Assembly (NCBI RefSeq): GCF_024223415.1
Contig: NZ_CP100500.1
Direction: 5' to 3' (one strand)
Origin: Escherichia coli
Lineage (GTDB): Bacteria; Pseudomonadota; Gammaproteobacteria; Enterobacterales; Enterobacteriaceae
DNA: 64,000 bases
The position numbers and the translations under genes were made by a program. Below the pieces are notes generated by a model that did no database searches, was not told where the DNA came from, and was given only the letters and a program-made list of their open reading frames with translations. This document shows positions 15,075 through 22,205 of this stretch, piece by piece (positions within the stretch are counted from its first letter, which is position 1; each line of letters opens with the position of its first letter).

Positions 15075-15893
15075 ATGCGATTAGCCAGTCGTTTTGGTTA
15101 TGCGAACCAGATACGCCGTGACCGTCCGCTGACCCGTGAAGAGCTGATGCACCATGTGCCCGGGATTTTCGGGGAAGATAAACACACCTCCCGGAGCCGG
15201 AACTATACATACATCCCCACCATCACCGTGCTGGAAAGCCTGCAGCGGGAAGGCTTTCAGCCATTCTTCGCCTGCCAGACCCGCGTACGTGACCCGGGCC
15301 GCCGGGGGTATACCAAACACATGCTGCGTCTGCGCCGTGACGGGGAGATAAACGGACAACATGTCCCTGAAATTATTCTGCTCAACTCTCATGACGGTAC
15401 CTCCAGCTACCAGATGCTGCCGGGTTACTTCAGGTTCGTCTGCCAGAACGGATGCGTCTGCGGTCAGTCTCTGGGGGAAGTGCGTGTTCCGCACCGGGGA
15501 AATGTGGTGGACAGAGTCATTGAAGGGGCTTACGAGGTGGTGGGCGTGTTTGACCGGATAGAGGAGAAGCGTGATGCCATGCAGTCGCTGGTCCTGCCGC
15601 CACCGGCACGCCAGGCGCTGGCACAGGCGGCACTGACTTACCGTTATGGTGACGAACATCAGCCCGTCACCACCGCCGACATTCTGACGCCGCGACGCCG
15701 GGAGGATTACGGTAAGGACCTGTGGAGCGCATATCAGACCATCCAGGAGAATATGCTGAAAGGCGGGATTTCCGGTCGCAGTGCAAAAGGAAAACGTATC
15801 CATACCCGGGCCATTCACAGCATTGATACCGACATTAAGCTCAATCGCGCATTGTGGGTGATGGCAGAAACGATGCTGGAGAGCCTGCGCTGA
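15075..15893 (+). CDS. DUF932-family protein (YfjQ/YafZ-like)
   Basis: 272-aa ORF closely resembling remembered YfjQ/YafZ sequences (MRLASRFGY...ILLNSHDGTSSYQ...). Confidence 0.8.
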   Translation: MRLASRFGYANQIRRDRPLTREELMHHVPGIFGEDKHTSRSRNYTYIPTITVLESLQREGFQPFFACQTRVRDPGRRGYTKHMLRLRRDGEINGQHVPEIILLNSHDGTSSYQMLPGYFRFVCQNGCVCGQSLGEVRVPHRGNVVDRVIEGAYEVVGVFDRIEEKRDAMQSLVLPPPARQALAQAALTYRYGDEHQPVTTADILTPRRREDYGKDLWSAYQTIQENMLKGGISGRSAKGKRIHTRAIHSIDTDIKLNRALWVMAETMLESLR

Positions 15894-15974
15894 TGCCGTT
15901 TCCCTGAGTGAGGGAATCATTCAGCTTTCGTTCCTGAAAAACACACATTTATTTGTTATTTAAGGAGTTATCTC

Positions 15975-16454
15975 ATGAAAACCGTTTCTCAGAATACCCC
16001 CACAATTTATTCAGCTACAACACCAGAGAATAATCCGCCTCAGTTGGTTGCCAGCCTCGTCCCTGATGAACAGCGCATCAGCTTCTGGCCGCAGCACTTT
16101 GGCCTCATTCCACAGTGGGTGGCCCTGGAGCCCCGTGTCTTCGGCTGGATGGACCGTCTGTGTGAAGACTACTGCGGTGGTATCTGGAATCTGTACACCC
16201 TGAACAACGGCGGGGCATTTATGGCACCCGAACCGGATGACGATGATGACGAAACATGGGTACTGTTCAATGCCATGAACGGTAACCGCGCTGAAATGAG
16301 TCCGGAAGCTGCCGGCATTGCTGCCTGTCTGATGACGTACAGTCATCACGCCTGTCGTACGGAGTGTTATGCCATGACGGTCCATTATTACCGGCTGCGG
16401 GATTACGCCCTGCAGCATCCGGAATGCAGCGCCATTATGCGCATCATCGACTGA
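15975..16454 (+). CDS. antirestriction protein, KlcA/ArdB-like (YfjX/YafX family)
   Basis: 159-aa ORF with an acidic stretch (PEPDDDDDE), position and sequence typical of the island antirestriction proteins. Confidence 0.75.
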   Translation: MKTVSQNTPTIYSATTPENNPPQLVASLVPDEQRISFWPQHFGLIPQWVALEPRVFGWMDRLCEDYCGGIWNLYTLNNGGAFMAPEPDDDDDETWVLFNAMNGNRAEMSPEAAGIAACLMTYSHHACRTECYAMTVHYYRLRDYALQHPECSAIMRIID

Positions 16455-16946
16455 ATGGAGGCAGGGACAATGCAGCAGCTTTCCTTTCTGCCCGGAGAGA
16501 TGACGCCCGGCGAGCGCAGTCTCATTCTGCGGGCCCTGAAAACTCTGGACCGCCATCTTCATGAACCCGGCGTGGCCTTCACCTCCACCCGTGCGGCACG
16601 GGAATGGCTGATTCTGAACATGGCGGGACTGGAGCGTGAAGAATTCCGGGTGCTGTATCTGAATAACCAGAATCAACTGATTGCCGGTGAAACCCTCTTC
16701 ACCGGCACCATCAACCGCACGGAAGTCCATCCCCGGGAAGTGATTAAACGCGCCCTGTACCACAATGCCGCTGCCGTGGTGCTGGCGCACAATCACCCGT
16801 CCGGTGAAGTCACACCCAGCAAGGCAGACCGCCTTATCACGGAACGTCTGGTACAGGCACTGGGCCTGGTGGATATCCGGGTGCCGGACCATCTGATAGT
16901 CGGTGGCAACCAGGTTTTCTCCTTTGCCGAACATGGTCTGCTTTAA
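16455..16946 (+). CDS. RadC-like JAB-domain protein (YeeS/YfjY/YkfG family)
   Basis: JAB/MPN motif HNHPSGEVTPSKADRLITERL; start may be the internal Met (MQQLSF..., 16470). Confidence 0.8.
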   Translation: MEAGTMQQLSFLPGEMTPGERSLILRALKTLDRHLHEPGVAFTSTRAAREWLILNMAGLEREEFRVLYLNNQNQLIAGETLFTGTINRTEVHPREVIKRALYHNAAAVVLAHNHPSGEVTPSKADRLITERLVQALGLVDIRVPDHLIVGGNQVFSFAEHGLL

Positions 16947-17008
16947 CCCGTCACAACCACATCACGCTTGTTTGCACTTTTATCTTCTGTCTTCAGAGGT
17001 ATCACACT

Positions 17009-17230
17009 ATGAAAATCATCACCCGTGGTGAAGCCATGCGTATTCACCAACAACATCCGGCATCCCGTCTTTTTCCTTTCTGTACCGGCAAATACCGCTG
17101 GCACGGCAGTGCTGAGGCGTATACCGGTCGTGAAGTGCAGGATATTCCCGGTGTGCTGGCCGTGTTTGCTGAACGCCGTAAGGACAGTTTTGGCCCGTAT
17201 GTCCGGCTGATGAACGTCACTCTGAACTGA
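17009..17230 (+). CDS. yeeT: DUF987 protein (YeeT/YkfH-like)
   Basis: 73-aa ORF, near-identical to remembered YeeT (MKIITRGEAMRIHQQHP...). Confidence 0.8.
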   Translation: MKIITRGEAMRIHQQHPASRLFPFCTGKYRWHGSAEAYTGREVQDIPGVLAVFAERRKDSFGPYVRLMNVTLN

Positions 17231-17248
17231 GTCAGTAAGGGCACTCTG

Positions 17249-17880
17249 ATGAGCAGAATTATCACCATCACAGTGTATACGCTGGATGAACTTTCCTGCC
17301 CGGCACGGGAAAAAGCCCGCGACGGGTACCGTCAGCATCATGCTGACAGCAACTGGTATGAAAACGTGTATGAGGACGTCAGGGAGGTCTGTGGCATTTT
17401 CGGAATTGACCTCTGCCAGCGTGTTATCCGTCTCAGCAACGGCAGGTTTATGGAAGAGCCGTGCATCTGGTTCAGCGGATTCTGCAGCCAGGGACGGAGC
17501 CTGTTTTGAAGGACGCTGGCACTGGCAGTCAGCAACAACCAGGAGAGTCCGGGAGTATGCCCCGCAGAACCGTGAGCTTCATCGTATCGCGGATGCCCTG
17601 CAGGCGGTGCAGAAACGTAACTTCTGGCAACTGCAGGCTGAAATCCACCACCGGGGACGTTACTGCCATCCGTTATCACTGTTACCCGGAACAGTCCGAC
17701 TGGTCAGGCTATGACAGCCGATGCGGAAGCCGCTGTCAGCGAAGCCCTGCGCGACCTGGCCTTCTGGCTGTACCGTCAACTGGAAAACGAGTACGACCAG
17801 ATGACCTCAGACGCCGCTGTGGATGAGGCCATTCTCATCAATGCATACATCTTCACCGAAACCGGTCAGCGCACCGGCTG
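17249..17880 (+). pseudogene. island ORF split across frames, family unknown
   Basis: Protein-like translation runs in one frame (17249-17509), shifts to a second (to 17714), then returns to the first (ATG 17711 to stop 17878-17880, ...AVSEALRDLAFWLYRQLENEYDQ...). Two frame changes would be needed for a single product. Confidence 0.45.
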
Positions 17881-17930
17881 ACCTGTCATCGTTAAACCAT
17901 TCTTAACCACTTTTCAGAGAGGATTTTATC

Positions 17931-18299
17931 GTGTCAGACACACTCTCCGGGATAACTCATCCCGACGACAATCACGACCGCCCCTGGTGGGGGCTTCCCT
18001 GCACAGTGAGGCCCTGTTTTGGCGCCCGTCTGGTGCAGGAGGGTAACCGCCTGCATTACCTTGCCGACCGCGCCGGCATCAGAGGCCGGTTCAGCGATGC
18101 GGATGCATACCATCTGGACCAGGCCTTTCCGCTGCTGATGAAACAACTGGAACTCATGCTCACCAGCGGTGAACTGAATCCCCGCCATCAGCATACCGTC
18201 ACGCTGTATGCAAAAGGGCTGACCTGCGAAGCCGACACCCTCGGCAGTTGTGGTTACGTTTATCTGGCTGTTTATCCGACGCCCGAAACGAAAAAGTAA
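17931..18299 (+). CDS. cbeA: type IV toxin-antitoxin antitoxin CbeA (YeeU family)
   Basis: 122-aa ORF near-identical to remembered CbeA/YeeU (MSDTL...NHDRPWWGLPCTV...). Confidence 0.85.
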   Translation: MSDTLSGITHPDDNHDRPWWGLPCTVRPCFGARLVQEGNRLHYLADRAGIRGRFSDADAYHLDQAFPLLMKQLELMLTSGELNPRHQHTVTLYAKGLTCEADTLGSCGYVYLAVYPTPETKK

Positions 18300-18389
18300 A
18301 CCACCGGAATAACCTTCTGCTCCGGCCAGGTGTTTTCACCACGCCACTCTCCCCATAATTTAATCTCTCATATCAGGAAAATCTTCAGT

Positions 18390-18800
18390 ATGAAATTATT
18401 ACCCGACACACATGTACGGGAGGCATCGTGCTGCCCGTCTCCCGTCACCATCTGGCAGACACTGCTCATCCGTCTGCTGGACCAGCACTATGGCCTCACA
18501 CTGAATGACACACCGTTCGCTGATGAACGTGTGATTGAGCAGCATATTGAGGCCGGCATTTCACTGTGCGATGCGGTGAACTTTCTCGTTGAAAAATACG
18601 CACTGGTACGTACCGACCAGCCGGGATTCAGCGCAGGAGCCCCGTCGCAGTTAATCAACAGCATCGATATTCTCCGGGCCCGCCGGGCAACAGGCCTGAT
18701 GACACGTAATAACTACAGAATGGTAAATAACATTACCCTGGGTAGCATCCGGGGGCGAAACGATGAAACTTTCCCTGACGCTGGAAGCCGACAGCGTTAA
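18390..18800 (+). CDS. cbtA: type IV toxin-antitoxin toxin CbtA (YeeV family), divergent extended C-terminus
   Basis: From the internal Met MKLLPD..., strong match to CbtA through ...MVNNITLG, then a different 18-residue tail that overlaps the next ORF by 38 nt. Confidence 0.75.
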
Positions 18801-19185
18801 CGTACAGGCGCTGAACATGGGGCGAATTGTCGTTGACATTGATGGTGTTGAGCTCACTGAACTGATTAACAAGGTCGCTGAAAACGGTTATTCACTCCGC
18901 GTGGTGGATGAACGTGACGCTACCGAAACACCGGCGACTTCTGCCAGCTCTCATCAGTTGCCGGAAGACAATACAGTGATACAGAGCGTGATGCCATTAA
19001 CCACTGAAACAGCGCTGGATATCCTCATTGCGTGGCTGCAGGACAATATCGACTGCGGGTCCGGAATTATTTTCGACAACGATGAGGATAAAACGGATTC
19101 GGCAGCACTGCTGCCCTGTATTGAACAGGCCAGGGAGGATATCCGTACCCTGCACCAACTGCAACTTCTGCACCAGAACCGGTGA
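18763..19185 (+). CDS. YeeW-like protein
   Basis: 140-aa ORF immediately after cbtA, as in CP4-type islands; identity is from recollection of yeeW-like genes, moderate certainty. Confidence 0.5.
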
Positions 19186-19269: not shown

Positions 19270-19833
19270 ATGTCATATATCACAATCCCCCACCCGAACG
19301 CGGTCAACGGACATACAGCCGTTATCTGTTCCACAAGTATCCGCCACATTCTGGCTGTACGAAAGAGTACACTGCTGCAAATCGACACACTTATCCGGCA
19401 ACTGGCTGAAATATCAGCAATGACAGAAAGTATTGGCGGTAAAGCCGCCCCGGGCTGGGCCATGAAACAGGATTTTCGCTGCGGCTGCTGGCTGATGGAG
19501 AAACCGGAAACCGCAATGAAAGCCATCACACGCAATCTCGATCGCGAAATCTGGCGTGACCTGATGCAACGTTCAGGGATGCTTTCCTTAATGGATGCAC
19601 AGGCCCGTGATACATGGTACCGGTCACTGGAGTACGATAATTTTCCGGAAATCAGCGAAGCGAACATTCTGAGCACATTTAAACAACTGCACCAGAATAA
19701 GGATGAGCTGTTTGAGCGGGGGGAGATCAACGTCTTCAGAGGACTGAGCCGGGATTACAAAACCAGGTCGCCCTGCAAATTTAGTAATAAAATTATCATC
19801 AACAACCTGGTGAGGTGGGACCAGTGGGGATAA
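19270..19833 (+). CDS. hypothetical protein, terminal ORF of the island (possibly DUF4942-like)
   Basis: 187-aa ORF, last gene before the island boundary; family assignment uncertain. Confidence 0.45.
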   Translation: MSYITIPHPNAVNGHTAVICSTSIRHILAVRKSTLLQIDTLIRQLAEISAMTESIGGKAAPGWAMKQDFRCGCWLMEKPETAMKAITRNLDREIWRDLMQRSGMLSLMDAQARDTWYRSLEYDNFPEISEANILSTFKQLHQNKDELFERGEINVFRGLSRDYKTRSPCKFSNKIIINNLVRWDQWG

Positions 19834-20028
19834 TGAGATGGTTCCCCCCCACCTTAACAGCAGTACGCTGTTAAGGTGAATCCCTTTATGCTTCCCCCCT
19901 TTCACCTCATCTTCCAACACCCGGGTTTGATTCCTTTTTCACAGCAAAAGGGACTGAGGGTACAAAAGAGGGTATATTTTTCACCAAACCAAACAAAACA
20001 AACAAATATCAACATGATAGAAGAAATC

Positions 20029-20050
20029 TTCGATTCCGAGTCCGGCACCA
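20029..20050 (+). repeat. partial direct repeat of the tRNA-Phe 3' end (att site of the pheU island)
   Basis: ttcgattccgagtccggcacca matches the 3' end of E. coli tRNA-Phe (GGTTCGATTCCGAGTCCGGGCACCA) except for one missing G; no full tRNA gene is present, so this is the distal repeat. Confidence 0.75.
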
Positions 20051-20061
20051 AATTCATATAA

Positions 20062-20088
20062 ACGGACCTCCACGGAGGTCCGTTTTTC
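20062..20088 (+). terminator. intrinsic terminator (pheU-type) after the att repeat
   Basis: Hairpin acggacctcc/ggaggtccgt followed by a T-run. Confidence 0.6.
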
Positions 20089-20666
20089 GTTTCAGGACGC
20101 CACGATTTAAGCGTTCTGCCGCCAAATCAATTCTACCGAACTCAACCAGATTCTCCCCACATCACCAGCAATTTGCGGGCATATCCCAATTCGGGAAAAT
20201 TTGCTCCTTAGCTATAGCACTAACTGACGTGAAATGTCGTGCGGCCCCGTGATGCTGTTGAACGTCAAATGACGTCATCAGGAGCGTAACGCATCCATAA
20301 AGCACAACACCGGTCTGAACGGCGACTGATGAGATTTTCTGAATGAGAACAAAGAGAAATGTATCAGTCCGCTTGCTCATGCAAAGACTAACAATCCATT
20401 AAAATAGTAAGCGCTCCGGACAATTTTCCATGGATTATTTTCTGAACATTTTTCTTTGGCAAAGATGATGAATTTTGATGGTAAGGAATATTACTTCTGG
20501 TTCTCAGTAAAATCCTTTCGTAATACTATGTAATCAAGAAGTTTATGGCTGGTAAAAATAACGTCTTGCATCCACCAATAATATGTAAATAAACCCATCT
20601 ATAGATGGTAAAAATAGGTTGTGGCAATTATCATTGCATCATTCCCTTTTCGAATGAGTTTCTATT

Positions 20667-22205
20667 ATGCAACAACCTGTAGTTCGCGTTGGCGAATGGC
20701 TTGTTACTCCGTCCATAAACCAAATTAGCCGCAATGGGCGTCAACTTACCCTTGAGCCGAGATTAATCGATCTTCTGGTTTTCTTTGCTCAACACAGTGG
20801 CGAAGTACTTAGCAGGGATGAACTTATCGATAATGTCTGGAAGAGAAGTATTGTCACCAATCACGTTGTGACGCAGAGTATCTCAGAACTACGTAAGTCA
20901 TTAAAAGATAATGATGAAGATAGTCCTGTCTATATCGCTACTGTACCAAAGCGCGGCTATAAATTAATGGTGCCGGTTATCTGGTACAGCGAAGAAGAGG
21001 GAGAGGAAATAATGCTATCTTCGCCTCCCCCTATACCAGAGGCGGTTCCTGCCACAGATTCTCCCTCCCACAGTCTTAACATTCAAAACACCGCAACGCC
21101 ACCTGAACAATCCCCAGTTAAAAGCAAACGATTCACTACCTTTTGGGTATGGTTTTTTTTCCTGTTGTCCTTAGGTATCTGTGTAGCACTGGTAGCGTTT
21201 TCAAGTCTTGATACACGTCTTCCGATGAGCAAATCGCGTATTTTGCTCAATCCACGCGATATTGACATTAATATGGTAAATAAAAGTTGTAACAGCTGGA
21301 GTTCCCCGTATCAGCTCTCTTACGCGATAGGCGTGGGTGATTTGGTGGCGACATCACTTAACACCTTCTCCACCTTTATGGTGCATGACAAAATCAACTA
21401 CAACATTGATGAACCGAGCAGTTCCGGTAAAACATTATCTATTGCGTTTGTTAATCAGCGCCAATACCGTGCTCAACAATGCTTTATGTCGATAAAATTG
21501 GTAGACAATGCAGATGGTTCAACCATGCTGGATAAACGTTATGTCATCACTAACGGTAATCAGCTGGCGATTCAAAATGATTTACTGGAGAGTTTATCAA
21601 AAGCGTTAAACCAACCGTGGCCACAACGAATGCAGGAGACGCTCCAGCAAATTTTGCCTCATCGTGGTGCGTTATTAACTAATTTTTATCAGGCACATGA
21701 TTATTTACTGCATGGCGATGATAAATCATTGAACCGTGCGAGTGAATTATTAGGTGAGATTGTTCAATCATCCCCAGAATTTACCTACGCGAGAGCAGAA
21801 AAAGCATTAGTTGATATCGTGCGCCATTCTCAACACCCTTTAGATGAAAAACAATTAGCAGCACTGAACACAGAAATAGACAACATTGTTACACTACCGG
21901 AATTGAATAACCTGTCCATTATATATCAAATAAAAGCGGTCAGTGCTCTGGTAAAAGGTAAAACAGATGAGTCTTACCAGGCGATAAATACTGGTATTGA
22001 TCTTGAAATGTCCTGGCTAAATTATGTGTTGCTTGGCAAGGTTTATGAAATGAAGGGGATGAACCGGGAAGCAGCTGATGCATATCTCACCGCCTTTAAT
22101 TTACGCCCAGGGGCAAACACCCTTTACTGGATTGAAAATGGTATATTCCAGACTTCTGTTCCTTATGTTGTACCTTATCTCGACAAATTTCTCGCTTCAG
22201 AATAA
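20667..22205 (+). CDS. cadC: CadC, membrane-bound ToxR-like activator of cadBA
   Basis: 512-aa ORF matching CadC (N-terminal winged-helix DNA-binding domain, single TM segment, periplasmic sensor). Confidence 0.95.
   Translation: MQQPVVRVGEWLVTPSINQISRNGRQLTLEPRLIDLLVFFAQHSGEVLSRDELIDNVWKRSIVTNHVVTQSISELRKSLKDNDEDSPVYIATVPKRGYKLMVPVIWYSEEEGEEIMLSSPPPIPEAVPATDSPSHSLNIQNTATPPEQSPVKSKRFTTFWVWFFFLLSLGICVALVAFSSLDTRLPMSKSRILLNPRDIDINMVNKSCNSWSSPYQLSYAIGVGDLVATSLNTFSTFMVHDKINYNIDEPSSSGKTLSIAFVNQRQYRAQQCFMSIKLVDNADGSTMLDKRYVITNGNQLAIQNDLLESLSKALNQPWPQRMQETLQQILPHRGALLTNFYQAHDYLLHGDDKSLNRASELLGEIVQSSPEFTYARAEKALVDIVRHSQHPLDEKQLAALNTEIDNIVTLPELNNLSIIYQIKAVSALVKGKTDESYQAINTGIDLEMSWLNYVLLGKVYEMKGMNREAADAYLTAFNLRPGANTLYWIENGIFQTSVPYVVPYLDKFLASE

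Follow-up and report, generated by a model that had tools for sequence, protein, structure and literature searches.

Within the 64,000-nucleotide stretch of Escherichia coli contig NZ_CP100500.1 analysed here (the window, from whose first base all positions are counted), the slot between yeeT and cbeA is very probably occupied by a genuine and inherited pseudogene, inactivated by two independent deletions of 2 bp (Δ2) and 10 bp (Δ10), whose parent is a conserved mobile-element gene encoding 214 aa. The pseudogene spans positions 17249–17881 of the plus strand and measures 633 bp, compared with 645 bp (214 codons) for the parent DUF8835 gene in end-to-end alignment with intact copies (L003:3050-3694 and L002:3050-3733). 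Its status is not new, as public annotation of identical copies already describes them as frameshifted, and RefSeq/PGAP labels the identical copy in strain AR_0085 (AM464_RS30715, NZ_CP029741.1) 'antitoxin of toxin-antitoxin stability system, frameshifted'. The locus is best annotated as one pseudogene; many assemblies split it into two or three short ORFs labelled 'hypothetical protein'.

Results

Three-frame translation and ORF listing of window positions 17200–17930 yielded three collinear pieces in the order frame A, frame B, frame A: frame A ends at 17490, frame B covers 17491–17673, and the reading returns to frame A at 17674. The corresponding ORFs lie at 17249–17509 (coordinate modulo 3 = 2), 17286–17714 (modulo 3 = 0) and 17711–17881 (modulo 3 = 2 again, in a frame that is open from 17642). 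The initial annotation had described this three-frame pattern for 17249–17880, and the pattern is present where it was placed, including the frame open from 17642. Its boundaries needed correction: the gene ends at 17881 (TGA at 17879–17881) rather than at 17880, and the first shift, put at 17509, falls at ~17491, position 17509 being the end of a stop codon. Alignment to intact homologues places all three pieces in collinear order along one protein of 214 aa, so the pattern is not due to chance. The N-terminal segment (17249–17490, plus strand) retains the original frame from the ATG at 17249 through codons 1–81 (MSRIITITVYTLDELS...FSGFCSQ, equivalent to intact residues 1–81). The middle segment (17491–17673, plus strand; approximately codons 83–142) can be read in the shifted frame alone, where it belongs to ORF 17286–17714 and ...GACFEGRWHWQSATTRRVREYAPQNRELHRIADALQAVQKRNFWQLQAEIHHRGRYCHP matches the intact protein. 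The C-terminal segment (17674–17881, plus strand) returns to the original frame with codons 147–214 and the terminal TGA, and holds a 56-aa ORF with an ATG start (17711–17881).

Alignment to intact copies located both lesions on the plus strand. Δ2 lies at 17491–17493, where the window reads GGG and intact copies read GGGGG, in the codons of the nearly invariant G82–D83 within the SQGDGA motif. At Δ10, ACAGCATGGA is missing between T17673 and T17674, taking out residues Y143–D146 just after the conserved Y139 and H141; no microhomology was found flanking the junction. The conserved motifs FSGFxSQGDGAxFxG and HxGxYxH are thus not preserved in the window copy, with Δ2 in the G82–D83 codons and Δ10 next to H141, and the two deletions leave no uninterrupted ORF of ~214 codons. 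Restoring 2 bp and 10 bp in silico gave a clean 214-codon ORF with no other stop, in which 193 of 214 residues (90%) were identical to the intact copy of E. coli LR-24. Alignment and repair together bear out the earlier suggestion of a single, genuinely decayed gene disrupted by two indels.

Five codons past Δ2, a premature TGA (17507–17509, plus strand; codon 87) is the first stop encountered in translation, giving a predicted product of 86 aa made up of 81 native residues followed by GRSLF, and three more stops occur in the same frame before Δ10. Δ2 by itself kills the gene, leaving an 86-aa fragment without most of the single compact domain of the parent protein. The two shifts had been described as compensating, and their lengths do sum to a multiple of three (2 + 10 = 12 bp), but they bring no rescue: with a TGA five codons after Δ2 and three further stops ahead of Δ10, no read-through product is expected, and the restoration of frame is a coincidence that exists on paper only. 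Estimates of dN/dS were ~0.40 for the repaired allele against the intact copies and 0.38 between two intact copies, and the absence of any increase over the intact pair suggests, at the low power afforded by few substitutions, that the lesions are recent relative to the divergence of the allele, with no sign of long-term relaxed constraint.

Two intact copies served as references, namely WP_113847078.1 (214 aa, E. coli LR-24, 'antitoxin of toxin-antitoxin stability system') and WP_000086768.1 (227 aa, strain 503025, 'hypothetical protein'), the latter reaching 227 aa through a stop-loss change of TGA to TGC (L002:3050-3733). The initial annotation could not assign the product to a family, yet one exists: besides the 'antitoxin' name, PGAP has the newer name 'DUF8835 domain-containing', and the intact copy matches PHROG 5162 (unknown function) with E = 9e-35. 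In several RefSeq annotations, the newer PGAP product name carries a typographical error ('DUF8835 domain-containing pootine'). Searches returned 1,866 hits in 90% clusters; at 50% identity there were 3,573 representatives, of which 337 scored below 1e-30. Members keep tightly to a length of ~214 aa, whether they come from E. coli, Salmonella and Klebsiella or from Tistrella and further Alphaproteobacteria, and are single proteins, which disposes of the possibility, raised with the initial annotation, that two separate small genes rather than one disrupted gene occupy the slot. Across a 120-member alignment, G77, F78, Q81, G82, D83, G84, A85, F87, G89, D108, Y139, H141, R172, W177 and Y179 are nearly invariant.

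An AlphaFold2 model of the intact protein showed one compact alpha/beta domain (pLDDT 96.6, pTM 0.89), with a sheet whose strands, at residues 53–92 and 129–151, lie to either side of the lesions. The intact protein had no match in scans of Pfam-A, NCBIfam or PADLOC, DUF8835 being absent from the Pfam-A copy searched, and a Pfam scan of the 120 alignment members gave scattered weak hits only (best E = 0.0017). Sequence searches of the PDB with phmmer and with a profile found nothing significant (best E = 0.77), and matches in BFVD were to uncharacterised phage proteins only. The fold is confidently predicted and appears to be without a solved structural relative. No literature on 'DUF8835' was found, and a search with the product-name phrase or yeeT returned nothing on the gene among the 15 best-ranked of 831 matches. 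A survey of polyvalent proteins (PMC5512222) discusses RadC and CbtA, and none of five terms searched in it led to a passage on the DUF8835 family.

The region was compared by megablast with 5,426 complete E. coli genomes, counting the gene as present at ≥80% coverage, and ~1,940 genomes were found to carry it. The DNA of the window copy is collinear with intact copies and 90–92% identical to them. Both lesions also occur separately: Δ2 alone in TUM9803 and ERP001, and Δ10 alone in Ch1 and GPEC1040. ACN002 combines Δ10 with a separate 5-bp deletion (Δ5), and EC0585 has no indel and a nonsense mutation (TAT>TAA) at codon 41. In a junction census with 60-nt queries, Δ2 was present in 34 genomes, Δ10 in 39 and both in 31. 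All four combinations of Δ2 and Δ10 therefore exist, which would call for recombination, gene conversion or recurrent mutation on at least one occasion. Except around Δ10, the window allele equals that of TUM9803 (Δ2 only); from alignment column 234, which lies shortly before Δ2, as far as the 3′ end, it also equals that of Ch1 (Δ10 only), Δ2 aside. With up to eight paralogous copies per genome, gene conversion between island copies is plausible. Counting a 538-bp deletion described below, loss of the gene has followed at least five distinct routes (Δ2, Δ10, Δ5, nonsense and the 538-bp deletion).

The initial annotation raised the possibility that the frame changes were homopolymer miscalls, that is, base-calling errors in a gene that is intact in the organism. 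The first lesion does fall in a homopolymer (G5 to G3), the kind of site prone to errors in long-read assemblies, although a 2-bp error in a five-base run would be atypical, and the second is a non-repetitive block of 10 bp for which there is no known error mode. The case against miscalling in this particular assembly is its identity with many independent ones. The 632-bp sequence of 17249–17880 occurs in 31 independent complete E. coli genomes, at 100% identity in 20 and at 99.8% identity and the same length in the other 11; equivalent pseudogene loci were thus found in 30 complete genomes besides AR_0085. Many carriers of the double-lesion allele came from poultry, and they derive from various laboratories and hosts. 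In a large protein collection, the exact 86-aa truncated product was present on 544 contigs and the exact product of the 56-aa ORF on 478. Each lesion is also found alone on related haplotypes. Taking these observations together, we consider a sequencing or assembly artefact extremely unlikely.

If the allele is real, its pieces might still be of use to the cell, with the 86-aa (17249–17509) and 56-aa (17711–17881) ORFs yielding two separate small proteins in which the function is wholly or partly preserved. Both have an ATG start, many assemblies call them as genes, and the allele has endured in a group of strains associated with poultry. Such a split is nevertheless highly improbable: family members are single chains of ~214 aa, the modelled sheet draws its strands from 53–92 and 129–151 into one compact domain, and a split would forgo the middle 60 residues, among them the conserved D108, Y139 and H141. 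The ATG at 17711 is preceded only by an AGG at poor spacing, and related alleles with other lesions (Δ5, nonsense at codon 41, Δ10 only) do not fit a conserved split architecture. A gene kept functional by programmed recoding (+1 near 17491 and −1 near 17673), or switched by slippage in the G-run as in phase variation, would accommodate the shifts summing to a multiple of three and the position of the first in a run of G. However, no X XXY YYZ slippery heptamer occurs in 17441–17720, the stop comes five codons past the first site, intact homologues are read in a single frame throughout the family, and single-lesion and nonsense alleles exist. An Rfam scan of 16900–18400 gave one chance-level hit and no element. 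The run comprises only 3–5 G, whereas typical contingency tracts are longer, typically of seven or more units, and the exact 60-nt G3 junction, the one run length counted, was found in only 34 of 1,870 genomes. The hallmarks of programmed frameshifting (as in prfB, dnaX and IS3-type elements) and of phase-variable loci are accordingly not those of the window copy, and recoding or phase variation is scarcely credible. An inherited pseudogene remains our reading of the locus.

The right arm of a CP4-type island, adjacent to cadC, harbours the pseudogene; this arm is decaying, and several other genes in it are damaged. The immediate neighbours of the pseudogene, both on the plus strand, are intact: yeeT (DUF987) upstream at 17009–17230 (Pfam PF06174, E = 5e-40), and the type IV antitoxin gene cbeA/yeeU downstream at 17931–18299, a 122-aa ORF whose AR_0085 equivalent is a YeeU family antitoxin. 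Gene order along the arm is GTPase, DUF932, antirestriction, RadC, DUF987, pseudogene, CbeA, CbtA, DUF5983, DUF957 and DUF4942, after which comes cadC (20667–22205). Lesions in the neighbours were called by comparison with an intact reference island. In cbtA (18390–18800), a 1-bp deletion near the 3′ end (GGGTAAG to GGGTAG) changes the last few residues and runs the ORF into the next; the lesion is common to AR_0085, Ch1, TUM9803 and others, where cbtA is flagged 'frameshifted' and cbeA is intact. A hybrid ORF at 18763–19185 joins the N-terminus of DUF5983 to the C-terminal part of DUF957, as ~366 bp of the reference in the DUF5983–DUF957 interval are replaced by 85 bp (junction ~18909–18995). 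DUF4942 (19270–19833) is truncated, with homology ending at 19831, and is followed by an interval at 19834–20666. The near-identical AR_0085 locus has a C-terminal integrase fragment between DUF4942 and cadC, and matching PGAP damage flags. Over the 6.8-kb island segment 13900–20700, the best match in a complete genome was 97.6–97.9% identical, though the pseudogene itself is 100% identical in 20 genomes.

ARAGORN identified no tRNA or tmRNA genes in the 64-kb window, though the CP4-type island abuts cadC, which in K-12 has pheU, a tRNA gene, in its neighbourhood; the tRNA that served the island as attachment site must either be located beyond the window or have been lost. No sigma-70-like promoter was found in 16950–18000, and two terminator-like hits in the same interval, both on the minus strand, were within the expectation from shuffled sequence. 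On the minus strand, opposite DUF932 and antirestriction/radC, there are also two long antisense ORFs (15081–15920 and 16011–16934; 279 and 307 aa), which are probably non-coding by-products of codon composition.

Intact members of the family are widespread on conjugative elements, islands and phages. In ICE-like regions, the DUF8835 gene follows genes for ParB-like, DUF6878 and DUF6915 proteins and precedes those for a 1,400-aa methylase/AAA_34/Helicase_C_4 protein and YAcAr; other ICE-like copies lie near ArdC, DUF2958, relaxase and T4CP. One copy is located between N6-methylase and PDDEXK/UvrD genes, and another in a phage-like run of small ORFs. Enterobacterial islands with the gene carry an antirestriction gene, RadC, DUF987 and CbeA/CbtA. 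In Klebsiella (L016:4610-5996) and Salmonella (L017:4630-6081) the order is DUF987–CbeA–DUF8835–CbtA, unlike in E. coli, where the gene lies upstream of cbeA, and in the Salmonella locus the DUF8835 gene overlaps the upstream cbeA by 4 nt. Natural in-frame DUF8835–CbeA fusions of 342–343 aa, with the linker ...AGLPEDFIVSD..., occur in some E. coli (P0019 and ~15 others).

Discussion

From the alignments, the likely course of inactivation can be outlined. Δ2 probably arose by replication slippage in the G5 run, and Δ10 is a block deletion without microhomology, independent of Δ2; each strikes one of the most conserved motifs of the family. Given that the two lesions circulate separately, the double-lesion allele would have one of two origins: either an allele already inactivated by one lesion acquired the other, or paralogous copies in the islands recombined or underwent gene conversion.

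Genomic context offers a tentative suggestion as to what was lost: the intact protein may be an accessory factor that serves mobile elements in establishment or anti-defence, recruited next to CbeA/CbtA in enterobacterial islands. Once an island had been immobilised, such a factor, or alternatively a third member of the toxin–antitoxin module, might have been costly to keep, and its repeated independent inactivation in E. coli islands might then stem from selection for its loss. We regard selection of this kind as doubtful, the alternative being neutral decay. The window copy itself is an ordinary pseudogene in a decaying cryptic island and matters little. Its parent family is large, structurally unassigned and borne on mobile elements, and may merit experimental study, for which the broken window copy is not the one to choose.

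Comparison with known systems separates this gene from its best-known neighbour and ties it to its own relatives. CbeA/YeeU (PF06154) adjoins the DUF8835 gene in the same operon-like block, and in some E. coli is fused to the DUF8835 protein, but the two share no sequence similarity, and distant DUF8835 members reside in ICEs and phages with neither CbeA nor CbtA nearby. Neither the intact homologues nor the window fragments matched PF06154 in Pfam at E ≤ 0.1, and the true cbeA is the ORF at 17931–18299. With no such match, and with distant members lacking these neighbours, neither sequence nor context outside the enterobacteria supports the former product name, 'antitoxin of toxin-antitoxin stability system'. 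WP_113847078.1 and WP_000086768.1, in contrast, are homologous to the window copy over their full length and come from the same E. coli slot; they are intact, whereas the window copy, lacking 2 + 10 bp, cannot encode the full protein.

The slot itself had been described in the initial annotation as usually empty or holding a small DUF gene. It is not usually empty: the gene fills it in the ~1,940 carriers, and in O157:H7 E32511, the one such genome examined, the 'empty' slot proved to be a scar of the same gene: the yeeT stop (~17230 in window coordinates) is joined directly to ~17769 by a deletion of 538 bp, and the sole part kept, equivalent to 17769–17930 of the plus strand, comprises the last 112 bp of the gene and the spacer before cbeA. 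The locus is thus the same as in the window, with the gene removed by a 538-bp deletion and not by small indels. The closest counterpart is the AR_0085 pseudogene AM464_RS30715, which is 100% identical over 17249–17880, has both deletions, is flanked by DUF987 and YeeU-family antitoxin genes and lies in an island next to cadC. The two copies do not differ within the gene, yet the 6.8 kb around them are only 97.6% identical, which indicates that these islands are mosaic.
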